Source of the DNA: Chiloscyllium plagiosum
Taxonomy: Eukaryota
Assembly: GCF_004010195.1 (NCBI RefSeq)
Contig: NC_057751.1
Span: 7,693,132 to 7,713,131, forward strand
DNA length: 20,000 bases
Direction of reading: 5' to 3'
In this document: positions 1,138 to 17,664 of the stretch, in pieces
How the letters are laid out: each line of letters opens with the position of its first letter
Position numbering within the stretch: position 1 is the stretch's first letter
Translations under genes and position numbers: made by a program
The notes under the pieces: model-generated
What the model saw: only the letters and a program-made list of their open reading frames with translations
Database searches by the model: none
Told to the model about the DNA's origin: nothing

Positions 1138-4100
1138 ATGGACAGAGGTGGGACGTTGTGTGGAGTCTGAGGAGATAGGGGAAGCACTAAATGAATATTT
1201 TTCGACAGTATTCACACTGGTAAAAGACAATGTTGCCGAGGAACCTGAGAAACAGGTTACGAGATGAGATGGGATTGAGGTTCACAAGGAGGTGTTAGAA
1301 ATTCTGGAAAGTGTGAAAATTGATAAAACCCCTGGGTTGAATAGGATTTATCCTAGGATTCTCTGGGAAGCCAGGGAAGAGATTGTTGAACGTTTGGTTT
1401 TGATCTTTATGTCGTCATTGTCTACAGGAATGGTACCAGAAGACTGGAGGAGAGCAAATATTGTTCCCTTATTCAAGAAGGGGAATAGAGACAATCCTGG
1501 TAATTACAGACCAGTGAGTCTTACTTCGTTGTCAGTAAACTGTTGGAAAAGGTTATAATCACCTTGATAGGAATAAGTTGATTAGGGAAAGCCAACATGG
1601 TTTTGAGAGGGGTAGGTCATGCCTCACAAACCTTATTGAGTTCTTTAAGAAGGTGACGAAACAGATGGATGAGGCTAAAGCAATTGATGTGGTGTATATG
1701 GATTTTAGTAAGGTGTTTGATAAGGTACCCCACGGCAGGCTACTGCACAAAATACATAGACATGGGATTGAGGGCGATTTAGCGGTTTGGATCAGAAACT
1801 GGCTGGCTGAAAGAAGACAGAGAGGGTGATGGTTGATGGGAAATGTTCATCCTGGAGCTCAGTTACCAGTGGTGTGCCACAGTGTTTTGGGGCCACTGCT
1901 GTTTGTCATTTTTACAAATGATGTGGAAGAGGGCATAGAAGGATGGGTTAGTAAATTTACGGACAACACTAAGGTCGGTACCGTTGTAGATAGTGCCGAA
2001 GGATGTTGTAGGTTACAGAGGAACATTGCTAAACTGCAGAGCTGGGCTGAGAGGTGGCAAATCGAATTTAATGTGGGAAATTGTGAGGTGATTCACTTTG
2101 GAAGAAGTAACAGGAATGCAGAGTACTGGGCGAATGGTAAGATCCTTGGTAGTGTAGATGAGCAGGGACATCTTGGTGTCCAAGTACATAGACTGTCAAA
2201 GTTGCTACCCAGGATGATAGGGTTGTTAAGAAGGCATGTGGTGTATTAGATTTTATTGGTAGAGGGATCATGTTTCGGAACCATGAGGTGATGCTGCAGC
2301 TGAACAAAACTCTGATGCAGCCGCACTTGGAGTATTGCGTGCAGTTCTGGTCACCGCATTTTCGAAAGGATGTGAAAGCTTTGGAAAGGGTTCAGAGGAG
2401 ATTTACTCGAATGTTGCTTGGTATGGAAGGTAGGTCTTATGAGGAAAGGCTGAGGGACGTGAGGCTGTTCTCATTAGAGAGAAGAAGGTTGAGAGGTGAC
2501 TTAATTGAGACATACAAGATAATCAGAGGGTGAGATAGGGTGGACAGGGAGACCCTTTTTCCTCGGATGGTGATGGCGAGCATGACGGGGCATAGCTTTA
2601 AATTGAGGGATGATAGATATAGGACAGATGTCAGAGGAAGTTTCTTTATTCAGAGAGTATTAGACGCGTGGAATGCACTGCCTGCAATATTTGTAGATTC
2701 GCCAACGTTACTGGCATTTAAATGGTCATTGGATAGGCATATGGACGAGAATGGAATAGTTTAAGTTGGATGGGCTTCAGATTGGTTCCACAGGGCGGTG
2801 TAACATTGAGGGCTGAAGGGCCTGTACTGTGCTGTAATGTTCTCTGTTCTATGTTCAAAGAGCTGGACCACTCAAGTCAGGAATCACAAGTGGGGTGAAA
2901 TTTGCGTGAAGTTCCAAGGTATTTTCAAGTTGTTTGCAACTCAATACAATGTAAACCTGGGAACAGGATTCTTTCTTGACTCCTTCCCTATTTCCCAGCA
3001 CTTGGGAGAATAATTTATTCCCCATATTCCACCCTTGACCAAACTTGCAGATGATAGGCTTTTTAAAGATAAGAGGGCATCCTGTGTCACCAACATCCTT
3101 GATCAATTTGGCAGGGCGGGGGACTATGAGTCTTGTTTGTCCAAGTGGAGAACGTGTTACCTCAATAACTGGCATCAATCAGAAGCTAAGGCAAAAATGG
3201 TTTCCTCCCTTTTTCTCCGCCCAGCAATGTGAAGAATAATGAGATACGTCAAAGACATTTGAAAATATCTGTTTCATCCAGAGGTCCCATATTCACCAAG
3301 AATAATCAACTGGTTACAAAGACAGGTCACGCCACAAGTTCTCAGCAGCCGGGCAGTATCCCCAGACCAGTGGAAATTCTACTTCTGATCAGAGGTCAGA
3401 AAGCAAAACCATCTCATTCCGTCCCCTCTCCCTCTCCAGAGAGGGTGCCTGATCTGCTCAGTCCTGCCAACAAATTATGACTCCATCTCAGATATCCAAT
3501 ATCTGCAGTGTCACTGCATTTGCACTGACCGGCGTTTGAACAGTGCCCTTGCGTTAAAAGCAACTTAATGTCCATGTGTGAAACTTTTTACTCAGTGCCT
3601 TGAATCAAATTATTTTAATGCCCTCATTACGCACAGGGGAACCAGACTTAATTCATGTGCCTTTTACCGAGCCCGACAATCTTTCACCTCAGGAGTATTT
3701 TTCTTGATGAAATCAATAGCTTTCTGTGACAGTAAGTAGATCCAGCAAATATGTTATTAGAACCCATTTATTTTTCTGACTATAAAATGGGCCATTGCTT
3801 GTTAAACTCAACATAAAGGACCAAAAGATTTTTTCTTTTCCAATTCTATGCAGTCCAAAAGGACTGTCAGCACTGAGCAGTATGACAGTTTTCCCTCTGT
3901 GGCTCTCAGCTTCAAACACCCTTTCCTGTACCAAATAAAGTGTTCACTACATTGCCTCTGGCAAATGCTCCCAGGATAGTGATAGCACGGGGCTCAATAC
4001 AGAATAAAACTTCATCTGCACTGTCCCTCATCAAATTCTCCCGGGACATGGACCGCACAGGATTAGGTGCAGAGCAAAGCTGCCTCTGAGCTGTTCCCCA

Positions 4101-5160: not shown

Positions 5161-6381
5161 ACATGTACACTGGTGTGATGTGGCTGGGAACTGTGTTTTG
5201 TAGGACGCGTCCCCCCATGACACACCTTGCTTTGTTTCAAAAGTGGGGGAGGGGGGGGGAATTTGCAACATTTTGTTGGAATGGAATGGAGTTATCAAAG
5301 GTCAAAGGCTTGTATTTAACCACCCCTCAACTGGGTTTAAAGAAGTGGCATCAATCTCACAAACAATTGATGCCTTCAGCGCATGCTGCTTCCTGCAACT
5401 TAAAAACATTTTATACTTCTTTTCTTAGGATTCTGTTGTTCTGTAGACTTCACACAACTCTCTGCAAGACCTCTCTCAAGAGGTGGAACAGAAAATCCAT
5501 CCAGTGCCCTGAGGATGACTAAATGCAGTCACCTCAATGAGACAAAAAAAAACTTGACTCCACTCAAACTCAGCAAATTAAATTATACGAATTGTCACAG
5601 CCTGTGTGGACCACACTCTCTTAATGTTACAGAAAGGTCGGCAGTTACCACATGCCCACAGCTGTTCTCAAAAGACCTCTTGCTTGGCAACTGAGATGCT
5701 TGTTTGTTTGAGGTCTTCAGGGGACAATAAGGAGAATATTTTATCAATGACACACATGCACAGTAAAGATGGGAAGTTCCCAACGGGTTTTTGTGACTGT
5801 GACTGTTACCAGCTTTTTAAATTCCAAAAATTTAATTGCTGTTCAGACACCATGATGGTATTTAAGAACTGTGAAAACATCTTTCCCTGCTGTTTATGAA
5901 ACTGTTCAGCTCAAAAGAGTCAAAACTGGTTGGAAACAGCGTTTTTATTTTATCCCAACGGTTCTCCCGAACTTCTGAATTGCTGTGTAGGATCATTGGT
6001 CATGGAGGCAAAGCAGGAGATTTGGGAATTGCAATGTTAAGTAACTACATGTGGTCATTAACCCTGCCACTAACCAAGGGATCGGAAGTTATTCAGATCC
6101 ATCTGATGGTGATGGAGATTACAAATAGCCCTGCAAATGACTCTATGACTATGACTAATTAAAAAAATCGTATTTTTGCAACGTAGATCACAAAGAAACA
6201 AAAATACAACTGAATCCCTACTCAACTCAACAATCAACCAGATCATGTCATTCAAATGGGCCACAGGATGACTGATGTGGGAAACAGAGATGCCACGGTT
6301 AGAAATGGAGTGGGGTGGCTGTTGGAGGAGCATCTCTGTCAGCTCTGGGTTGAGATCTATTCTGAATGGCAAGTCATGGTT

Positions 6382-6740
6382 GAGGTGACAGCCCAGTGGT
6401 ATTATCGCTGGACTGTTAATCCGGAGACCCAGATAATGTTCTGGGGACCAAGGGTCAAATCCTGCCACGGCAGATGGGGGAATTTGGATTCAATTAAAAT
6501 CTGGAATTTGGAGTCTTATGATGACCATAAAATCCATTGTTGATTGTCAGTGAAAAACACCCGTCTGGTTCACTAATGCCCTTCAGGGAAGTAAACTGCT
6601 GTCCTTAACTGGGCTGGCCTATGTGTGACTCCAGACCCAATACAATGTACTTGACTTTTAATGCCCTTTGGGCAATTAGGGATTGGTAATAAATGCTGGT
6701 CTAGCTGGGGATGCCCTCATCCTGTGAATGAATAAAAAAA
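6382..6740 (+). mobile_element. Full-length tRNA-derived SINE
   Basis: 5' A-box-like CAGCCCAGTGG and B-box-like GGTCAAATCC; body CTGGTTCACTAATGCCCTTCAGGGAAG; 3' tail GGGCAATTAGGGATTGGTAATAAATGCTGG...CATCCTGTGAATGAATAAAAAAA, shared with LINE tails at 10620-10700, 13940-14010 and 17665-17720. Confidence 0.85.
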
Positions 6741-6962
6741 CAAGCTAAAGTTAGCATTCGTCTTCATCTAACCCATGTTCTGTTCCAGAAAAACAAAATG
6801 CTCAGAGCTTACTCTGCAGACAATAGAAAAAAAATTCATTGATTCAGAACAGGCAATGATATCTATTATGAAAGAACATCACATTTACCTGCTTTATCTC
6901 AGGAGCAATGTAATCTATTTGGAAAAGATGTATTGCCTCTTCAATTTATGGAAAGCAATTTC

Positions 6963-6968
6963 TTTATT
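6963..6968 (-). promoter_or_regulatory. Candidate polyadenylation signal (AATAAA) of the minus-strand pseudogene
   Basis: Minus strand ...TTC CAA TAA TAA AGA; AATAAA overlaps the stop of ORF 6967-7185. Confidence 0.3.
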
Positions 6969-7758
6969 ATTGGAACACAAATGAATTTGGCCCAGGAATG
7001 CCAGCTACATTGATGTAATTTCTCCACTGAAGTGTTTTACTCTCAAACTGTGCAGAAACCTGAAGCTTGCACTGACTGACTTCTGTTTGGTTGATTTTAG
7101 CATCGGCAAACTCCATCTCTGAAGCACCATTGCAATTTAAAACCAAAGGTGTCACATACTCCCCCCTGATCAGCAGGGTCTTCATGGTTGAGCTCCCAGA
7201 TTTGGAAGTGTCTGTCTCAGAAACATCAGCAACCTGCTGCTACAGTCGGCTCTGCGATAATTTGGTAGTTCCGTTCTCATGCATCCCATGTTAAAGAAAA
7301 TCGCGTAACAGCAGCACCATTTAAACTAATGGGATTGGAATCACCTGTAAACCAATACACGCTTTAAGACTTTGCGCTTCAGAAACAGTGTCCCCAAATC
7401 GTCAATCGTGTTATAGTGAATTTGTGTTAATAACACACGTGTTATAGCAGAACGACTTGGGTTTGCATTGCTGGTAGTATCCACAGGACGAGCACTGAAT
7501 GCTAATGTTTGAGGGACTGAATGCTTCAAGGGGTGGACACGGTATTGAACCAGCAGACAGCTTTATCCTGCATGATGTTGGGATGATCAAGTGCCACTGA
7601 AATATCGGTGGCAATGTTTGGAAGCTGTTCCGAGGCGTTCAATATGTTTGTAGAAACGCATTCCTCATGCAATGCAGAGTCAAGTTTCTGAGTCAATGCT
7701 TGATTCAGTAAAACTTTGCCTGAGAGGTCGCTCCACATTTTTTAACTCTCTGGATGCA
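6967..7758 (-). pseudogene. Pseudogene exon F (probably terminal), interrupted by a MITE
   Basis: Strong acceptor ctcactctgttctctttccctccacacatttctttgcctcag|T. The phase-2 frame reads ASRELKNVERPLRQSFTESSIDSET*LCIA*GMRFYKHIERLGTASKHCHRYFSGT*SSQHHAG*SCLLVQYRVHPLKHSVPQTLAFSARPVDTTSNAN. A stop-free ~90-codon stretch (7239-6967) lies beyond the MITE, but the register across the MITE is ambiguous. Confidence 0.6.
7243..7459. mobile_element. ~217-bp non-autonomous Tc1/mariner (pogo/Tigger-like) MITE
   Basis: Imperfect TIRs: TA|CAGTCGGCTCTGCGATAA on the left and, reverse-complemented, CAAGTCGTTCTGCTATAA on the right. Internal TATAACAC sub-repeats. The TA target site is seen on the left only. Confidence 0.7.
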
Positions 7759-8086
7759 CTGAGGCAAAGAAATGTGTGGAGGGAAAGAGAACAGAGTGAG
7801 CTTCCAAATGCTTAGCAACTGCTTCCAAACAGTGATGAGAACAAAATCAGAATTTAAACAGATTGCAATGAAACAAGCTGTTTCTCTGATAGCTTGTTGG
7901 ATCTAATAAATGAGACCACACCTCTCTGATGAGCCCCTTTTATTTTTCTGAACAAGTTTGTTTCTTTGAGTTCACTCTCACCTTCCCGACACGGGGTTAA
8001 GACCATGTCCTGGGGTACAGTTCTTTTTGTGAACTCACAAACATCCATTTGGTGCAGTGAGAGCCCCACTCCATTCCTTGAGCTCA

Positions 8087-8485
8087 TCATAAGAATGGAA
8101 GAAATTGGAGCAAGAGGAGGCCACATTCAGCCCTTCAATGTCTATCCCACCCTTCCACGGGATCATGGCTCATGTTCCTCGTCAACACTATTTTTCTACA
8201 CAATCACCATTTTTAATGTGCAGACACCTTTCCACTCAGTCTTGAACTATAAGTAAATGTGAATTGTTCTTTCTGATATTCCATTGCGTGAATGTTCTAT
8301 TGTCAGAACAATCATGAATGTGCACAACCCATAACTATTTACAATTCTCGGACAATTATTTACAATGTATTCGATACCCTCAATGCAGAGATGGAAACCG
8401 ACCCTCTGGTCCAACTCGTCCATGCCAACCAATTGTCTGTAATTAATCTAGTCCACTTTGCCAGCATTTGGCCCAAACCTATGCT
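8087..8485 (-). mobile_element. Two old CR1 3'-end fragments (~8087-8290 and ~8385-8485)
   Basis: GGAGCAAGAGGAGGCCACATTCAGCCCTTC matches 12673-12730; GGTCCAACTCGTCCATGCC...GCCAGCATTTGGCCCA matches 12489-12557. Confidence 0.7.
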
Positions 8486-8674
8486 TTCAGACACCATCTG
8501 ATATCGCACCAGTCTGGGAAACGGCAGGAGAGGTTAAAGGCATGGTGTAGAAGGAACAGACAGTTGCGAATTCCGCAAGTGAGGGCACACCCACCCAGGA
8601 CGAGGCAAACCAAATCGGGCACAGGAGAGAGCCAATGGGTGTTTCACCGGGTCCCTGGCAATTCACAACCTCAC

Positions 8675-8736
8675 CTCTCAATGTTCTTCAGATCATATCT
8701 CCAGAGGAGAGAACAAGAGTCACCGGCTGTGCACAC
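8675..8736 (-). pseudogene. Pseudogene exon E (62 nt, phase 0 to 2)
   Basis: aaaatag|GTG TGC ACA...ATT GAG AG|gtgagg. Only one frame is open: VCTAGDSCSLLWRYDLKNIE(S). AG+T joins exon F in its protein-like frame. The acceptor polypyrimidine tract is weak. Confidence 0.55.
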
Positions 8737-8971
8737 CTATTTTCATCAGAAACATCTTTAATGGTGCCAATCTTTTTACCATTACTCCAAGAGGCTGTGG
8801 ATTGGACAACAACCCAGCAACATCACAATGGTTAAAAACTCAGACACTCGAGAAAATGAGACATAATGTTTGCAATGTCTTTCATCGGCATGGAGCGATC
8901 AGGAGGTGGAAAGTCTTCGGGGTGGAATTTAAAAGCTTAGTGCTTTAGCAAGTGGAGGGAGGAAAGATGCA

Positions 8972-9266
8972 GGGTGACACTGAGGCTCAGTGGTTTGCAC
9001 TGCTGCCTCACAGTGACAGGGACCTGGGTGACTGTCTGTGCGGAGTCCACACATTCTTCATGTGTCTGCATGGGTTTCCTCCGGGTGCTCTGGTTTCCTC
9101 CCAAGGTCCAAAGACATGCAGGGTCAGTGGCTTGGCCCATGGAAAAATGAAGGGTTACGGGGATAGGTTGAAGGTCTGTCTGAGCCTGGGTGGGATGCTC
9201 TTCAGAGGGTTGGTATGGAATTGATGGGCCGAATGCACTCTTTCCTGGTTGTCAGGATTCTAAGAT
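8972..9266 (+). mobile_element. HE1-like V-SINE (tRNA-derived) with the B-box deleted
   Basis: A-box GGCTCAGTGG, GCACTGCTGCCTCACAG, V-domain GTCTGCATGGGTTTCCTCCGGGTGCTCTGGTTTCCTCCCA, CR1-like tail TGATGGGCCGAATG...GGATTCTA. The GGTTCGATTCC segment is missing at ~9028. Confidence 0.88.
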
Positions 9267-9267
9267 C

Positions 9268-9500
9268 TTGGAGGGCTGGAGGTGACAGAATTAGGGAGAT
9301 GAATGCTATAGAGGAATTTGAAAATAAGGATGAGAATTTGGAGATGGAAGCATTGCCAGACCAGAATCAGACGGTCAGCAACAATGTCTTTATGGTGGAG
9401 CACGTTTGAAGGCCCATTCCTTCTTCTAAGTCTTGTGTTTCATATTAGTCCATAATAGGACTTGGTAAGAGTCAGGATGAGTTACGCTGAGTTTTCTGTT
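9268..9500 (-). mobile_element. Old L2-type LINE fragment
   Basis: The reverse complement of GAATTTGAAAATAAGGATGAGAATTT encodes KFSSLFSNS / ILILIFKF-like L2 C-terminal sequence; related to 4930-4975. Confidence 0.5.
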
Positions 9501-9879
9501 CAAAATTACAAAAAACATCTCAGGCACACAGGACTCGAGGGATCATGTTTTACACAGGAATGCTTTGGTACAGGACGTGTACTGAGGACTTAGAATTTCA
9601 ATTCCTTGGGTTATTTTATTAAGGTAGCTCTTTTCCTCTCTCACAATTTTCTTCCCCCAAAACAGTTCCAAGCAACCCCTCTTTTTGCCTGTCAGCCTCA
9701 TCAACATAATCAGCAGCTTAATTCAAGCCGACTGGGGTCACAGAAATTGTGGCGACTTAGCAGTGTCTAATGGGTTAGCAGTGTCTAATGACAGCAGTGC
9801 AAATGCAGTACATTACAAATTAACATGCATAAACTCAATCTCAACCAGCTTTAGCATGATGGATTGCCTGGAGGGTAGG

Positions 9880-10336
9880 GATGTGTTTGGTTATAAACCT
9901 GAAAGGGTTTGTCCAACTGACGAAGTTTAAGCTCTGTTGTGTGATGACTAAAGTAAAAGACTAATGAAATCCCAAGACCAGGAATTGAAAGAGAGAGTCA
10001 ACTCAAACTACAGATGCAACTAAGGAATTCTGTCTGACATTTGAGTAACTGTAAATGGGAATAGATGGGAGATTTGTTTTGCTTGTGCTTTGAAATGTGT
10101 TTTTACATCTTTCAGATTGCACAATGTTTAAATGGCTTGACTCATTCTGTTTATTTCTTCAAGTTTCCTTTGTGTAATAAACTTCTCTTTAATTGTTAAA
10201 ACCAAAGCTGCAGCATTGCACGTTTGTTTCACAGGAAAGAACACCACGTTTCATTCGAAGAACGTATGATCCATCAAGCCAGATTTTAATCTGGGATCTG
10301 ACTTGCTCAGCAGTAACATCGGCTGGGATCATAACA
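9880..10336 (+). mobile_element. Possible solo LTR / LTR 3' part
   Basis: AATAAA at ~10176 in a T-rich U5-like stretch ending ...GGGATCATAACA, a typical LTR 3' terminus. The 5' boundary and TSD were not found. Confidence 0.35.
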
Positions 10337-10344
10337 TAATTGCT

Positions 10345-10580
10345 TTCAGCCTGGGGTCACACATCCACAATTTTGGGTAAGGATGGCAGGTTTCAATTCC
10401 AAAAGGATATGAGTAATCAATTTAAATTTCCACCATTGCCAGCATGAGGCATGATTCCAAATTGAATAAGTGATCAAATTTAACCTCCTGTTCTCACTGT
10501 GGGGTTTGAACTCTTGTCTCCAGATCTCCACTGCAGGTCTCTTCCCATATAATCTAGCCCCATAATCATTGTGTCACCAT
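10345..10580 (-). mobile_element. Old copy of the tRNA-SINE seen at 6382-6740
   Basis: GGGGTCACAC...GGTAAGGATGGCAG...GGGTTTGAACTC...GTGTCACCA is a decayed reverse complement of that SINE. Confidence 0.6.
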
Positions 10581-10609
10581 AACTTCCACCTAACATCGCT
10601 TGCTAAAGT

Positions 10610-10895
10610 GCTCCGCAACATCACCTTCTCAAGAACAACTCGGAATGGACAATAAATACTGGCCTGCCAGCACTGCCCACATCCCATGAGGAAAGAGAAA
10701 AGGAATCCTGCAGGCTGTCTCCCCAAAAGCCTGTCCACCATCTGCAAGGCATAAGTCAGGAGTATGATGAGACACTTCCTACAGTGCCTGGATAAGTGCA
10801 GCTCCAGCAACACTCAAGGAGCTTGACACCATCTAGGACAAAGAAGACACTTTGAAAACCATGTCCAAAAATGTCCAGTTCCTCCACCACCTTTA
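10610..10895 (+). mobile_element. L2/CR1-group LINE fragments (3' tail plus RT C-terminal piece)
   Basis: 10720-10850 encodes PKSLSTICKA*VRSMMRHFLQCLDKCSSS, with a frameshift into TLKELDTI*DK. The tail at 10620-10695 is shared with the SINE. Confidence 0.7.
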
Positions 10896-11283
10896 ATGAA
10901 CTCTTTAAACTTCATATTTTAGATCTTCCTTTTTTTGGATAAGACATGCTCTGGCCTTTCCAAAATAAAAACTTTGTACCTGCATTTATTCACGTGTTTC
11001 ATGTCACATTTCACAACTCCTATCACTTGCATTCAATAAGAGTGTGCAATCAGTTCCTTAGTTTTTGCGAGTGCTTTGCTTTAAATGAAGCATGTAATTT
11101 TTATGTGCAGACAAGAATTAAACTCATTGTTACAGGTAACCAATAGGTGGGTGCAGAGAGGGGGAGTTGGGGTGACATTAAGAAGGGAAGATTTGGTTCA
11201 CCCTTGCTGGAAAATCTCAGCAAAGCCTCCCAAATTCCCATGAGGTGATTCCGCAGAAACCATCATTTTGCTGAATGACTCAC

Positions 11284-11528
11284 GTATGATAATCACCCAA
11301 CATGTAATGAACTCCATTGTCCAGTGATCTGCACCTCAATAAAGGGGCAGCACCTTTGGGACAGGTGCAGATTACAATGTGAACCACTCATACCATGGAA
11401 ATGTGGTATATGAGCACTGGTTAACTCATGCGCGCTCATCAACAAACTGCTCCGTTCTGTGGTTAAACGTCTTGGACTGCAGCCCATGCATTCAATCAGG
11501 GTGGGAGTCATTCACCGCCTCATACACT
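11284..11528 (-). pseudogene. Pseudogene exon D (245 nt)
   Basis: ccttccatttgtccag|A GTG...CATAC|gtgagt; reads (R)VYEAVNDSHPD*MHGLQSKTFNHRTEQFVDERA*VNQCSYTTFPWYEWFTL*SAPVPKVLPLY*GADHWTMEFIT. Joining exon E in frame needs a 1-nt frameshift near 11302 (giving VG*LSY) or the weaker donor at 11296. Confidence 0.6.
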
Positions 11529-12454
11529 CTGGACAAATGGAAGGTGACGCTTAATTATCTCAAAGATTCAGAGTTGTCAGTTTCAGGAGGACATGCTCTC
11601 CGAAACACACAACAGTTCTTGGTTCCTTCTGTTTTGTTTACATCAATACCATCAGAGCTCTGCTGAGCTTCCCTCCCTCCTGACACAATGCAAGTACTTC
11701 ATGCTGCACAGTCCTTTGCCACTCTGCGTTCAATGTGGTCAAATTGAGATTCATGAACCTGTCTTCTCCTCCAACCCTTGCTTGCTTGGGGCTCTGAAGC
11801 TGTGAAGCCCCTCATTTATCTGTCAATACCATCTGTCCACAGCCCACAGTCTTTCAAAAACAAAACTGCATGGCTTGTCTCATCATCCCTCGTCAGGAAA
11901 GATGAGCAGAAAATTCTGCTCACTGCTAATAAGGCAGTACTGAGGGGTGTGCTGCACTGACAGACAATGGGACTCTCAATTGAATCCAGGGCTCTCTGTC
12001 TAATTGTGAGCCAAATAACCCAGAGGCCTGGAGTAATGACAGTGACATACAACATCAAATTCCTAGAGAAATTCCTGAGAAAGTTAAATTCAGTTCATTA
12101 AATAAACCTGGAGTAAAATTAACACCTGCAACGACCAGATTGCTCCAAACCTATTTTATAGTTGACCGCAGGTCAAAGTCTTTCAGTTGCACAAAGCCCC
12201 ACCCCAGTTGGTCTGATTTGGCTGGGAATGAATAAATACTGATTATTCTCATGGATAATTATCAGTGATCACTTGCAATGTAGGCAATGCATTGAGACAT
12301 AAAGGGGATCCCAAATGCGTATCTTTTAGACTACGCCTGATCTCCAACAATGTGCAAGGTCAGACCAGAAAGTCTCTATTCATCAAGAATACAATCAGGC
12401 AGGTACCATGGCACCAACTTCAAGTTTCACAGTGACTGGGTCAAAGCCACACAG

Positions 12455-13850
12455 TCAGAGACACGTATGGCATGGAAAGAGACCCTTCGGTCCAACTCGT
12501 CCATGCTGACCAGGTATCCTAAATTCATGTAATCCCATTTGCCAGCATTTGGCCCATATCCCTCTAAACCCTTGCTATTCATATACCCATCCAAATGACT
12601 TTTAAATATTGTAATTGTACCAGCCTCCACCACTTCCTCTGGCAGCTCATTCCATACACAATAGACAATAGATGCAGGAGTAGGCCATTCTGCCCTTCGA
12701 GCCTGCACCACCATTCATTATGATCATGGCTGATCATCCCCAATCAGTATCCTGTTCCTGCCTTAGCTCCATAACCCTTGATTCCACTATCCTTGAGAGC
12801 TCTATCCAACTCTTTCTTAAATGAATCCAGAAACTGGGCCTCCGCTCCCTTCTGGGGCAGAGCATTCCACACACCCACCACTCTCTGGGTGAAGAAGTTA
12901 ATCCTCATCTCTGTCCTAAATGGCCTACCCCTTATTTTTAAGCTGTGTCCTTTGGTTTGGGACTCAGCCATCAGCGGAAACATGTTTCCTGTCTCCAGAG
13001 TGTCCAATCCTTTAATAATCTTATACGTCTCAATCAGATCCCCTCTCAGTCTTCTAAACTCAAGGGTATACAAGCCCAGTTGCTACAATCTTTCAACATA
13101 AGATAGCTCCGCCATTCCAGGAATTGACCTCTTGAACCTACCCTGCACTCCTCCAATAGCCAGAATGTCTTTCCTCAAATTTGGAGACCAGAACTGCACA
13201 CAATAGTCCAGATGCAGTCTCATCAGGGCCCTGTACAGCTGCAGAAGAACCTCTTCGCTTCTATACTCAATCCCTCTTGTTATGAAGGCCAGCATGCTAT
13301 TAGCTTTCTTGCCCTCTGCATGAACAAGTTGCCCCTTAGGTCCCTTTTAAATCTTTCCCCTCTCATCTCAAACCTAGTTTTGGACCCCCCTATCCTGGGG
13401 AAAAAAGACCTTGACTATTCATCTTTTCCATGCCCCTCATGATTTTATAAACCTCAACAAAGTCACCCTTTAGCCTCTGCACTCCAGGGAAAACAGCCCC
13501 AACCTATTCAGCCTCTTCCTATAGCTCAAAACCTCCAACCCTGGCAACATTCTTGTAAATCTTTTCTGAACCCTTTCAGGTTTCACAACATCCTTCCGAT
13601 AGGAAGGAGACCAGAATTGAATGCAGCATGCCAAAAATGGCCTAACAAATGTTTTGTACAGCCGCAATATGACCTCCCAACTCCTGTACTCGCTGCTCTG
13701 ACCAATAAACGCAAGTGTCCAAATGTCTTCTTCACTGTCCTGTCTACCTGTGAATGAACCTGCATTCCAAGCTCTCTTTGTTCAGCAACACTCCCCAGGA
13801 AGTCTACCATTAAGTGTATAAGTCCTGCCCAGATACGCCTTCCAAAAAGA
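12455..13850 (-). mobile_element. CR1 LINE 3' portion (outer: 12455-12657 and 13311-13850)
   Basis: ORFs 13470-13667 (LYKTFVRPFLACCIQFWSPSYRKDVVKPERVQKRFTRMLPGL) and 12427-12714 (WNELPEEVVEAGTITIFKSHLD) are consecutive CR1 ORF2 C-terminal segments. Confidence 0.9.
12658..13310 (-). mobile_element. Second CR1 family nested inside the first
   Basis: ORFs 13083-13295 and 12744-13073 (LYRALMRLHLDYCVQFWSP; LEFRRLRGDLIETYKIIKG; WNALPQK). It has its own 3' tail (CTATTGT)2 at 12658-12670. The outer element resumes at 13311. Confidence 0.9.
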
Positions 13851-13851
13851 G

Positions 13852-14011
13852 AGCACTGCAAACCATTTCCTAACAGCACTGGGATAGATTGATGAGACCA
13901 CAAGGATTGTAGTGTTTCAACAAGACACCCAAACTGGGTCTTCAAGGACATTCTAGGAGGGACAACCAATGCTGGATTTGCCCATATCCCATCAATGAAT
14001 ACAAAAAAAAA
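13852..14011 (+). mobile_element. LINE/SINE-shared 3' tail fragment
   Basis: TTCAAGGACATTCTAGGAGGGACAACCAATGCTGG...CCCATATCCCATCAATGAATACAAAAAAAAA matches the tail at 6668-6740. Confidence 0.65.
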
Positions 14012-14057
14012 TGAACTTGCCACTTCTCAAGAATCCAACTTCCACAATACCCAACAC

Positions 14058-14246
14058 CTGGCATGCAAGGCCACAATATTGCTCCTGGCCCCTCAGAGAG
14101 GTAAATCACGAGTAATTCTTCCAGCTGAGCTTGAATAAATTTCTCTGAGGACAATGACTTTTTCTGGTTTGATTTCTGCACCAAGTAAATGAGCGTTGCA
14201 TGTGTCACGACCTATTTTGGTGAAATATTTTGCATCAGGTCGAAAT
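14058..14246 (-). pseudogene. Pseudogene exon C (189 nt, phase 2 to 2)
   Basis: cctactccactcactgtag|A TTT CGA...GCC AG|gtgttg; reads FRPDAKYFTKIGRDTCNAHLLGAEIKPEKVIVLREIYSSSAGRITRDLPL*GARSNIVALHA(R). One TGA; weak donor. Confidence 0.6.
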
Positions 14247-14611
14247 CTACAGTGAGTGGAGTAGGATGGGAACCAATTTAAGAATGACCTCATAACGTTG
14301 GACTCCAAAGGGCAGGAATTATTCCTTACAGCGCATTTGAGGCAAAAACATTTCTATCTGCTGGTCTCTTACACAAGTCAAAATCCTTCAAATGTATTCA
14401 TTGAAGGAGTTACGTCTCAGCTTTATATTGGCAAGTTAAGATATAGTTTACTGTCTTGCACCAGTACTAATTTTCACACAACAAGCCTGTCTGTCAGATC
14501 AAGACGATACAATAGCTCTATAAAGGATTTTACAGTGCAGTCAATCAAACAGCAAGCTGGTTCTGTGTTCTAATAATATATTGCAATTTTGCACGACACA
14601 ACTTTCATTAC

Positions 14612-14771
14612 CAGAGCTCATCTCAGTGTTCCATGTAAATAGAGAATGTACCAACAGTGTCATCTAAATGATAACCAGGACTCAAAGTAGATTCATCACA
14701 ATAACGTGGTGTGCAGGATGCAGGAACATCCCCCGAGGATTTGAGTTAAGAAATTGACAGTTTCCATTCCA
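14612..14771 (-). pseudogene. Pseudogene exon B (160 nt, phase 1 to 2)
   Basis: tttctccttttctcatcaacctttcaag|TG GAA...CTC TG|gtaatg; reads (L)EWKLSIS*LKSSGDVPASCTPRYCDESTLSPGYHLDDTVGTFSIYMEH*DEL. The junction codon with exon C is TG+A. Confidence 0.62.
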
Positions 14772-14859
14772 CTTGAAAGGTTGATGAGAAAAGGAGAAAT
14801 GGTCTCTAGTGTGTTGAAATAAATATAAGCTGAATGTCCCACATAAATCAGGGTCAGAT

Positions 14860-15158
14860 AGAACAAGAAGGGATGAGAGACACAGTGAGACAGAGGCCAA
14901 TATAGAAAGGGAACAGGTAGATGGAAAAGCTGTAAGTTACAGAGTGAGAGTGGGAGAGAGCTAGAGAGAGAAAGAGAAAGAGAGAGAGAGAGCAAGTGAC
15001 AGAGGGAGACAGCGAGATAGAGAGTACGAGAGAACAAGAATGGGCAGAGACTGGTGGAGTGTAACAGAGACAGAGAATTATTGGAGACAATAGGAGGAGA
15101 CAGACAAAATAAGAGAAAAAAGACAGCTGGAGACAGACAGAGAAAGAGACAGAGAGAC

Positions 15159-15189
<31 letters not shown>

Positions 15190-15257
15190 TGGGAGGAAAA
15201 ATATGACAAGAGAAAAGCAAGATAGAGATCGAGAAAAGCAAGATAGAAAGAAAGAGG
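14860..15257 (+). repeat. GA-rich polypurine low-complexity tract with (GA)n and (GACAGA)n microsatellites
   Basis: About 400 bp strongly purine-biased; pure (GA)n at ~15164-15189. Confidence 0.9.
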
Positions 15258-15929
15258 CACTTCAGGCGGATCAGCTTGGAAAGTAATTATGCCTCTGTGG
15301 TTCTGAGGGCATTAAATAAAGCAGAGAATCCAGCTGTCAATCAACACAAGAGAAAGCAGCTTCTCCATGATACAAGCACATTGGAATTATTGAATAGTGT
15401 TGGCAAGAGCTAGAGCAATATAAAGAGAAATGACACCAAATGCAAGTGGTTACTTCTATTCTCTGAGAGGTAAAAAAGAATCATTTAAAGTATCTGTCAA
15501 TAGACAGCATGATCTTGGTTTGTGCACTGACATTAAACTCAAGGCTGCTTCCTGGGCAACGGTCAGAAAACAATGTAAAATTATGGGTTACATTAATTCT
15601 CAGTAAGCTTTGAGTGTGGGAGGAGGGGTAAACAACCTCCTCAGCTGTGGAATTTGATACTCATTCACACAAAGAATAAAGGCCAAGGAATTTCTTTCGC
15701 ACATTAAAATGGGCGCAGACATTGATTTCAGCTCCTCAGTGCAGAATTTTCAATAACATGAAAATCAGTTTCTGTGCATCAGGTAAATGACAACAGCAAG
15801 GTGAAAAATGAATAGTCCGAGGAGAGACACAACAGACCAAGTAAAGCTCCCTCCACATTGTCCCCATCAAACATTCCCAAGGACAGCTGCAGCAAGGGGT
15901 TTGTTACAGAATAAAGCAGCCTCTACACC

Positions 15930-16280
15930 AGTTTCCCCTCCCCCCCACTTTATCCAAGTCCCAAGCCTCCAACTCGACACCGCCCTCTTGAACTGTCCAT
16001 CATCTTTCCCATCTAACCCCTCCACCCTCCTCTCCGACCTATCATCTTCACCCCCATCTTCATCTACCTATCACTTTCCCAGCCACCTTCCCTCACCCCA
16101 GCCCCACCTCCCTCCCATTTTCCTCTCAGTCCCCTTGGCCCACAAGCCTCATTCCTGAGTGAGGGGCTGATGCCCGAAACGTCGATTCTCCTGCTCCTCG
16201 GATGCTGCCTGACTGGCTGTACTTTTCCAGCACCACATTCTTTGACTCTGATCCCCAGCGTCTGCAGTCCTCACTTTCTC
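15930..16280 (+). mobile_element. Penelope-like element 3' end / pseudo-LTR
   Basis: C-rich segment, then a hammerhead core, then CTCCTGCTCCTCGGATGCTGCCTGAC...TCTGCAGTCCTCACTTT; reverse-complement homologue of 4363-4570. Confidence 0.75.
16152..16187 (+). ncRNA. Minimal hammerhead ribozyme motif
   Basis: CUGAGUGA (one extra nt)-G-GGGC-UGAU-GCCC-GAAACGUC; the ACGU palindrome and GUC cleavage triplet are intact. Confidence 0.65.
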
Positions 16281-16325
16281 CTATCTCTCTACACTGTCTC
16301 CAACAAACATTTACAGGGCAGGTGC

Positions 16326-16464
16326 AGTTCTGATGAAGGGTCACTGGACCTGAGACATTAACTCTGCTTACTCTCCACAGATGATGCCAGACCCGTTGCT
16401 TTTTCCAACAATTTCTGATTCAGTTGCTGATTTTCAGCATCCATGGTTTTTTTTGGTTTCTGTT
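16326..16464 (+). mobile_element. Older PLE-type 3' end with a decayed hammerhead (16326-16363)
   Basis: AGUU-CUGAUGA-AGGGUC-ACUG-GACCU-GAGACAUU-AACU; stem I AGUU/AACU and stem II GGUC/GACC are retained, the GAAA box is mutated. Confidence 0.6.
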
Positions 16465-16740
16465 CAGGTACAGCAGGGGGTGAGATAAAGAGTAAAGCTG
16501 TCTCTACATTGTCACCAACAAACACTCTCAGGACAGGGCCAGCACTTGGTTAGATACGTGTAAAGCTGCCTCTGCACTATCCACAACAAACACTCCCTTG
16601 GACAGCTCTAGCAAGGGGTTAGATGCAGAGTAAAGCTGCCTCTACGCTGTCCCCAATAAACACTCCCAAGACAAGGACAGCACATCCTGGAACACCCTCT
16701 CTTTCATTTCAGTCTTGAATAGGCTGCTTCTTTGTAGATT

Positions 16741-16925
16741 GTTAAAAATCACGCAACACCAGGTCACAGTCCAACAGATTCATTTGGAAGTACTAGCTTT
16801 CACAGCACTGCTCCTTCATCAGGTAATTAGTGGGTCAAGGTCATAAGACACAGAAATTATAGCAAAAGATCATAGTGCCATGCAATTAAAATGATATATT
16901 TAACAAACTTCTGTTTAACCTCTTT
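16741..16925 (-). mobile_element. Truncated PLE pseudo-LTR (same family as 19201-19606) with a hammerhead at 16791-16825
   Basis: Aligns with 19201-19390. Minus strand UAC-CUGAUGA-A-GGAGC-AGU-GCUGU-GAAAGCUA-GUA. Confidence 0.8.
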
Positions 16926-17058
16926 GTATGGTAACAGGGTTTCAACTGGCCTCCAGAAGAGCCAGTAAGGAAAATGATCAATGAATGAATGAATTACAGG
17001 CAAGGTTTGGAACTTAATTTCATTTGCTACAGTCTGCAGGCTCACGGAGCTGACATAC

Positions 17059-17202
17059 AGTTTGTACTCCCAATATTAGAAAGTGTTTGCAAATAAACCT
17101 CCACTGTATGTAAGACAGTTCTCCGTGCTATTGATCAGCTGAACAAAGCCACCGCATTATGATCTTTGGGCTGTGGAAGTTCAGTGATGGCTTTGAAATC
17201 AG
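17059..17202 (-). pseudogene. Pseudogene exon A (144 nt, phase 1 to 1); the most 5' exon found in the window
   Basis: tttttgttcttgtccctctttgtaaattccttcaag|CT GAT...AAC T|gtatgt; reads DFKAITELPQPKDHNAVALFS*SIARRTVLHTVEVYLQTLSNIGSTN. One TGA. Confidence 0.65.
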
Positions 17203-17249: not shown

Positions 17250-17500
17250 AAAAGACTAGAACCTGACAGGGAATCTTGATTGTAATGACAGATTGCACAG
17301 GGTAGATATAAAAAGATGCAATCCCCTGCTTGGTGGGAGGAGGCAAATTAAGAAATAAGATAAATGTGGAGACAATTCTTCACTCGAAGAAGTGTGGAAT
17401 GTAAAACTCAAGAGCATAGAGATCAGTAGTGTGGAAGTAACGTGACACTGAACCAACATAGACACGCATGTCGGTCCAATAGCCTGATTTATTGTTCAGA
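17250..17500 (+). mobile_element. Highly decayed CR1 3' fragment
   Basis: CAGGGTAGATATAAAAAGATG...TTCTTCACTCGAAGAAGTGTGGAAT...GGTCCAATAGCCTG follows the order of a CR1 3' end. Confidence 0.45.
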
Positions 17501-17664
17501 GACAATCTGAAAATGATTTGAAGTGAAATTCTGCAAGACCTGTCATTTTTACACTGCCAAGGATGAATACATTACAGTTGAACACAGGATCAGATCAATA
17601 AAGTCTGTCTGGGAAGAGAAAGACGAACCTCGCACAGTAGAGCAGAATGTTTACAAGTTGATGC

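Follow-up and report, generated by a model that had tools for sequence, protein, structure and literature searches.

A minus-strand gene relic likely lies in the window analysed here, a stretch of 20,000 nucleotides (nt) from the shark Chiloscyllium plagiosum (contig NC_057751.1, positions 7,693,132 to 7,713,131 of the forward strand), when all forms that such a relic could take are considered together. More specifically, six or more segments of the window, six of which we call exons A to F in the order in which they would be transcribed, are probably the decayed exons of a host gene that survives as an unprocessed pseudogene. This is the best reading of the segments because introns have been kept, the dinucleotide pattern is of the coding type and stops are shared with a related species (organism C below). 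The original prediction for this DNA had likewise proposed an unprocessed pseudogene, and the same three observations bear it out in part, while a homologue of the parent gene was not found. The window as a whole is repeat-rich vertebrate DNA with reading frames resembling those of long interspersed elements (LINE-like), and the introns of the relic contain LINE-like and other high-copy repeats.

The segments and their splice signals were reproduced from the sequence. On the minus strand an AG stands directly 5′ of all six segments and a GT directly 3′ of the first five, and the previously given translation of the spliced segments was regenerated identically. Exons A (17059 to 17202), B (14612 to 14771), C (14058 to 14246), D (11284 to 11528) and E (8675 to 8736) have lengths of 144, 160, 189, 245 and 62 nt, respectively, and the intron phases run 1,1,2,2,0,2, provided that one base is skipped at 11302; exon A leads from phase 1 to 1, exon B from phase 1 to 2 and exon C from phase 2 to 2. 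Splice sites were scored with vertebrate splice matrices. The acceptors of exons A to F rank in the top 6.6, 6.1, 2.9, 3.4, 42 and 0.3% among 378 AG sites in unmasked DNA, and the donors of exons A to E in the top 13, 3.2, 7.2, 4.3 and 0.3% among 349 GT sites, so that exon E has a weak acceptor and a very strong donor. The frame set by splicing is firm over exons A to C and as far as the first half of exon D. Along it, exon A has one TGA, exon B one TAA and one TGA, a further TGA is formed across the exon B/C junction, and exon C, the best-supported exon, has one TGA.

A search blind to these coordinates recovered the first part of the chain. Its best three-exon chain was A-B-C with exact ends, opening with exon A, at P values of 0.058 for amino-acid composition, 0.032 for TG dinucleotides lying across codon boundaries (TG at 3|1) and 0.013 for both combined (1198 dinucleotide shuffles), and the plus strand scored below zero in the same search. 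Exons A to D were all among the 48 candidate exons, and the chain running from exon A through the 5′ part of exon D (A-D5′) scored 6.5, compared with a maximum of -0.6 over 3477 chains of other candidates and with 15 +/- 6 for a simulated true relic. By amino-acid composition the model frame was the best of six in 6 of the 7 pieces (exons A to E and the 3′ part of exon F, hereafter F3′). Of the TG dinucleotides, 31 of 55 in A-D5′ (P 0.0004) and 16 of 26 in F3′ (P 0.003) fell on the 3|1 codon boundary, and exon C by itself had 10 at this boundary versus 2 and 2 at the other positions. The pattern recurs in 10 of 18 cases in a weak candidate upstream exon, Z (17268 to 17507, minus strand), which has provisional ends, reads through 81 codons to 17263 with a single TGA and may be joined to exon A by a 65-nt intron. 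Such an excess is what a coding gene that is old and methylated would show. The 5′ start of the gene is probably upstream, beyond the window.

The lesions are of several kinds. Along the path of the original prediction, which had counted 13 stops, there are in fact 14 (11 TGA, 3 TAA and 0 TAG), whether it is followed over 344 codons to 7524 or over 366 codons to 7458. The stop spectrum, which had been offered as support, provides it in one respect: across 446 codons there is no excess of TGA, which stands at background level (9 observed versus 10.6 expected), but TAA and TAG together are short (3 observed versus 10.1 expected). A single 1-nt shift had been placed near the end of exon D, and one continuous frame is indeed obtained when a base is skipped at 11302, but a shift near 11386 is equally plausible, and the frame of exon E is set by which of the two positions is taken. 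A frame-aware search favours the shift near 11386 (4 stops versus 7 in the next 154 codons, with better composition), and the position of CpG supports the originally proposed frame in exon F, where 6 of 7 CG lie at codon positions 1-2.

Exon F, previously drawn as one exon from 7758 to about 6967, is interrupted by a high-copy insertion of miniature inverted-repeat type (7240 to 7457, strand unassigned). The insertion is 218 bases long, has inverted ends that resemble each other, with a TA at the 7240 end, reaches a depth of 6789 in organism C versus about 30-50 in adjacent bins, and was assigned to a named family by no tool. The 5′ part of the exon (7458 to 7758, minus strand) contains four stops in the original frame and also holds a rival frame with a 71-codon open reading frame (7741 to 7529). 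F3′ (6967 to 7239, minus strand), which had been left untranslated, is a stop-free frame of 90 codons after the insertion (7239 to 6970) followed by TAA, and it is the best of the six frames there. Since the insertion is degenerate at one of its ends, F3′ may or may not join the original frame. The gene may extend past the originally proposed 3′ end by way of a weak candidate continuation (6754 to 6966, minus strand), in which the F3′ frame passes three TAA before it reaches a strong donor at 6888; an acceptor at 6813, also strong, would close an intron of 75 nt.

It is unlikely, on balance, that the segments are a plausible-looking chain selected by eye from non-coding DNA, whether intergenic or intronic, although a number of results point in that direction and weigh against a decayed gene. 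The codon-usage score of the chain was no better than that of best-of-three background frames (P 0.59), the composition score gave P 0.10 versus best-of-three and 0.53-0.63 versus best-of-six frames, an unconstrained gene-finder placed the real strand under the shuffle mean (P 0.73-0.83), and a four-exon chain search chose another segment in place of exon D (P 0.11), so that none of these measures separated the chain from background. The TG asymmetry itself has a P of only 0.12 when the null selects its frame by the same measure. The thresholds of the chain search were chosen with the exons already known. Stops are only about 40% less dense than in the background, the frame past about 11387 is ambiguous between two equally plausible readings, no exon-exon junction was found among the joints listed for the sequencing runs (15 of about 1847), and the searches returned a homologue for none of the pieces. 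Against chance stand the exact coordinate-blind recovery of A-B-C and the TG codon-boundary excess shared by A-D5′, F3′ and candidate exon Z, a measure that was absent from the stated grounds of the original prediction. Since the gene-finder did no better on the real strand than on shuffles, we consider the overall statistical support for the chain to be only moderate.

Public sequencing runs of three organisms contain the stretch as DNA; the run search named no RNA run containing it, which says nothing about expression. Of the 24 listed runs, 4 were aligned over 6900 to 14850, a span that takes in exons B to F. In organism C the exon bins, including that of exon B, have depths of about 32-44, like the unique flanks, while repeats reach thousands or more; the exons are single-copy there at 88% identity or more, and older copies may exist. 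Contigs of organism C differ from the window by 3.1-5.1%, exon-bearing and intron-only contigs alike. Among the differences listed (40 of 510, nearly all in 6989 to 8121 and none in exons A-E), all four exon F stops are kept in organism C, which additionally gains a CGA>TGA change at 7730 and is without one base at 7583, both in exon F. Because these stops are shared, the gene would have been dead before the split from organism C. The differences listed comprise 12 replacement and 3 silent changes in the 5′ part of exon F, and 6 replacement and 5 synonymous changes in F3′, the frame of which is still open; from these few differences the relic appears to be under no clear protein-level constraint.

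The copy number also bears on whether the segments could descend from a transposon, either as the fossil of a DNA transposon with introns or as a transposon gene that was domesticated and died later. Such an origin would account for the absence of the protein from host proteomes, and intron-bearing transposase genes are known in fishes (Zisupton, Harbinger and Chapaev), but we regard it as quite improbable: the exons are single-copy at at least 88% identity in organism C, which weakens the earlier suggestion of an intron-containing element, no piece has a Pfam match to a transposase family, and the codon-boundary TG pattern would imply long selection in a methylated genome. It is very improbable that these splice sites serve a living transcript, be it a spliced long non-coding RNA or that of a gene recoded so that TGA is read through. 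That 11 of the 14 stops are TGA would fit recoding, and one run of the same species label that is presumed to be RNA has a faint depth of 1.2-1.4 in the bins of exon B and of the end of exon D, but TGA is no commoner than in the background, the path also holds three TAA and a frameshift, organism C adds a stop and a deletion, and a raw RNA run (about 2% of reads) showed no depth in the bins of exons B to E.

If the segments are the exons of a dead host gene, the identity of its protein is the natural question, and the original statement that it fits no recognised family stood up to all the searches made, but those searches were blind to relatives with an identity of about 50% or less. Pfam returned nothing significant for 7 pieces, for 17 further frames and candidates or for the 3′ read-through, NCBIfam and PHROGs nothing significant for the 7 pieces, and Rfam nothing significant across the window. 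A PDB sequence search with 8 pieces gave best E values of 0.008 (a designed protein) and 0.05. Two large collections were queried with exons C and D only, each alone: word searches found no homologue of exon D among proteins of 143-2000 amino acids or of exon C among proteins of 110-2000 and 1815-5775 amino acids, and phmmer with exon D returned 0 matches against 1.84 billion representatives. An Atlas search with two stop-free exon F frames gave no usable match, with low recognition. Metagenomic and viral contigs gave no match in locus scans, and neither did phages and plasmids by tblastn. Single-sequence AlphaFold models were of low confidence (predicted local distance difference test scores of 36.8 for F3′ and 45.8 for exon C). 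Literature searches over listings and the opening lines of abstracts gave no account of the locus, which supplements could list.

Simulated searches indicate what these blanks mean. The exon C word search succeeded in 91% of trials with a relative at 70% identity, in 63% at 60% and in 25% at 50%; for phmmer with exon D, if only its first 47 residues are in frame, the figures at the same identities were 99.5, 84 and 55%. The blank searches largely exclude relatives at 70% identity or above and do not exclude those at 50% or below, and with such low power at the latter level a distant or fast-evolving parent is still compatible with the results. A close annotated orthologue is unlikely, provided that the collection includes shark proteins; ten open reading frames of the window had no exact sequence match in the protein collection and hence gave no control for its shark-protein content. 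Any intact relative that still exists is probably either unannotated or less than about 60% identical to the relic. Resemblances to ASH, lamin-tail, hAT-transposase and tyrosine-recombinase proteins received no support from any tool. Of these, the ASH/PapD-like immunoglobulin-fold domains of ciliary proteins resemble the relic in its N.G...L.W pattern across the exon A/B junction, but neither exon A nor exon B has a Pfam match singly, and exon C matches no giant protein in the word search.

Another lead within the pseudogene reading, that the dead gene was a diverged Upf1/senataxin-like superfamily 1B helicase, offers a slim prospect. It arose from a QYRVHP in exon F, which is a QYRMHP-type motif, though one picked by eye and hence weak, and from a stretch in F3′ (NG..E...KIN..E) that gave the best local alignment with a giant-virus helicase confirmed as AAA_12 by Pfam. 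The motif and this stretch follow each other in the expected order, at a spacing of 66 residues versus 52 (E 0.11 and 0.17, single comparisons), and with a 6-sequence profile the spliced frame came out on top among about 87 pieces (1.7 bits). A profile of 54 sequences, derived from 215 loci that yielded 118 helicase frames before near-duplicates were removed, aligned only the preselected QYRxHP motif and in any spliced frame left Walker A, DExxQ and GDxxQ upstream of it unaligned, while F3′ scored with this profile like its own shuffles (54% as high). A 5-sequence profile gave no match, and neither did Pfam AAA_11 (PF13086) or AAA_12 (PF13087), whereas the control helicase matched AAA_12 at 8e-42; this control is an Upf1-like AAA_11/AAA_12 helicase on giant-virus contig L087 (574 to 2085, minus strand). 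No Walker A or DExxQ was seen in the frames read. A helicase identity is not supported by the three profiles and two pairwise comparisons: the relic shares with Upf1-like superfamily 1B helicases QYRxHP and a weak second stretch in order, and differs from them in having no profile match, Walker A or DExxQ.

The history that we propose for the relic would begin with a gene long under selection in a methylated genome, in which CpG lying over codon boundaries became TG while the CG of arginine codons was retained. Inactivation would then have occurred before the split of this shark from organism C. The later decay would have combined CpG deamination, including CGA>TGA changes that create stops, with a few other stops, other substitutions, small indels, at least one frameshift and transposon insertions. 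A CGA>TGA change of the kind proposed is observed between the two species. For the epaulette shark a mutation rate of 7e-10 per base per generation is given (PMC10587355), and a rate this low allows the relic to be old. With such slow mutation, shark genomes can keep readable gene fossils that have been erased in other lineages.

The window has further features that stand apart from the relic. A non-repeat stretch at 5392 to 5045 (minus strand) ends at the strongest minus-strand donor (5044) and carries a protein-like frame with no Pfam match. No Pfam match was found either for a 139-codon stop-free frame at 6070 to 6489 (minus strand), which lies partly outside a stretch resembling short interspersed elements, or for an unexplained 107-codon frame at 2855 to 3178 (minus strand) beside a LINE-like element. 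A tandem repeat with a 69-base unit in 2.9 copies occupies 16471 to 16673. Near the start of the window a near-identical LINE-like stretch occurs twice, at 1 to 241 and at about 855 to 1095, about 854 bases apart, with the same translated frame at 128 to 367 and 982 to 1170, and this could be either a local duplication or an assembly artefact.

A fossil gene is in itself ordinary, and the significance of this one depends on its parent. If the parent was a known fast-evolving gene, the relic records one more lineage-specific loss; if it was an uncatalogued vertebrate gene, the relic would matter, as it supplies exact exon coordinates to search with. That the relic is the sole trace of a multi-exon vertebrate gene family absent from current protein collections is a possibility that we hold to be doubtful, and such a family would either have been lost across cartilaginous fishes long ago or be intact but unannotated in other sharks.

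Unprocessed pseudogenes are a known kind, and the comparison with those of vertebrates, whether unitary or duplicated, is the closest that we can draw. The relic differs from them in that no parent gene has been found for it, so that the defining homology is absent. What it shares with them is the retention of introns, the many in-frame stops, the frameshift, the insertion of repeats and the presence of the same lesions in close relatives.

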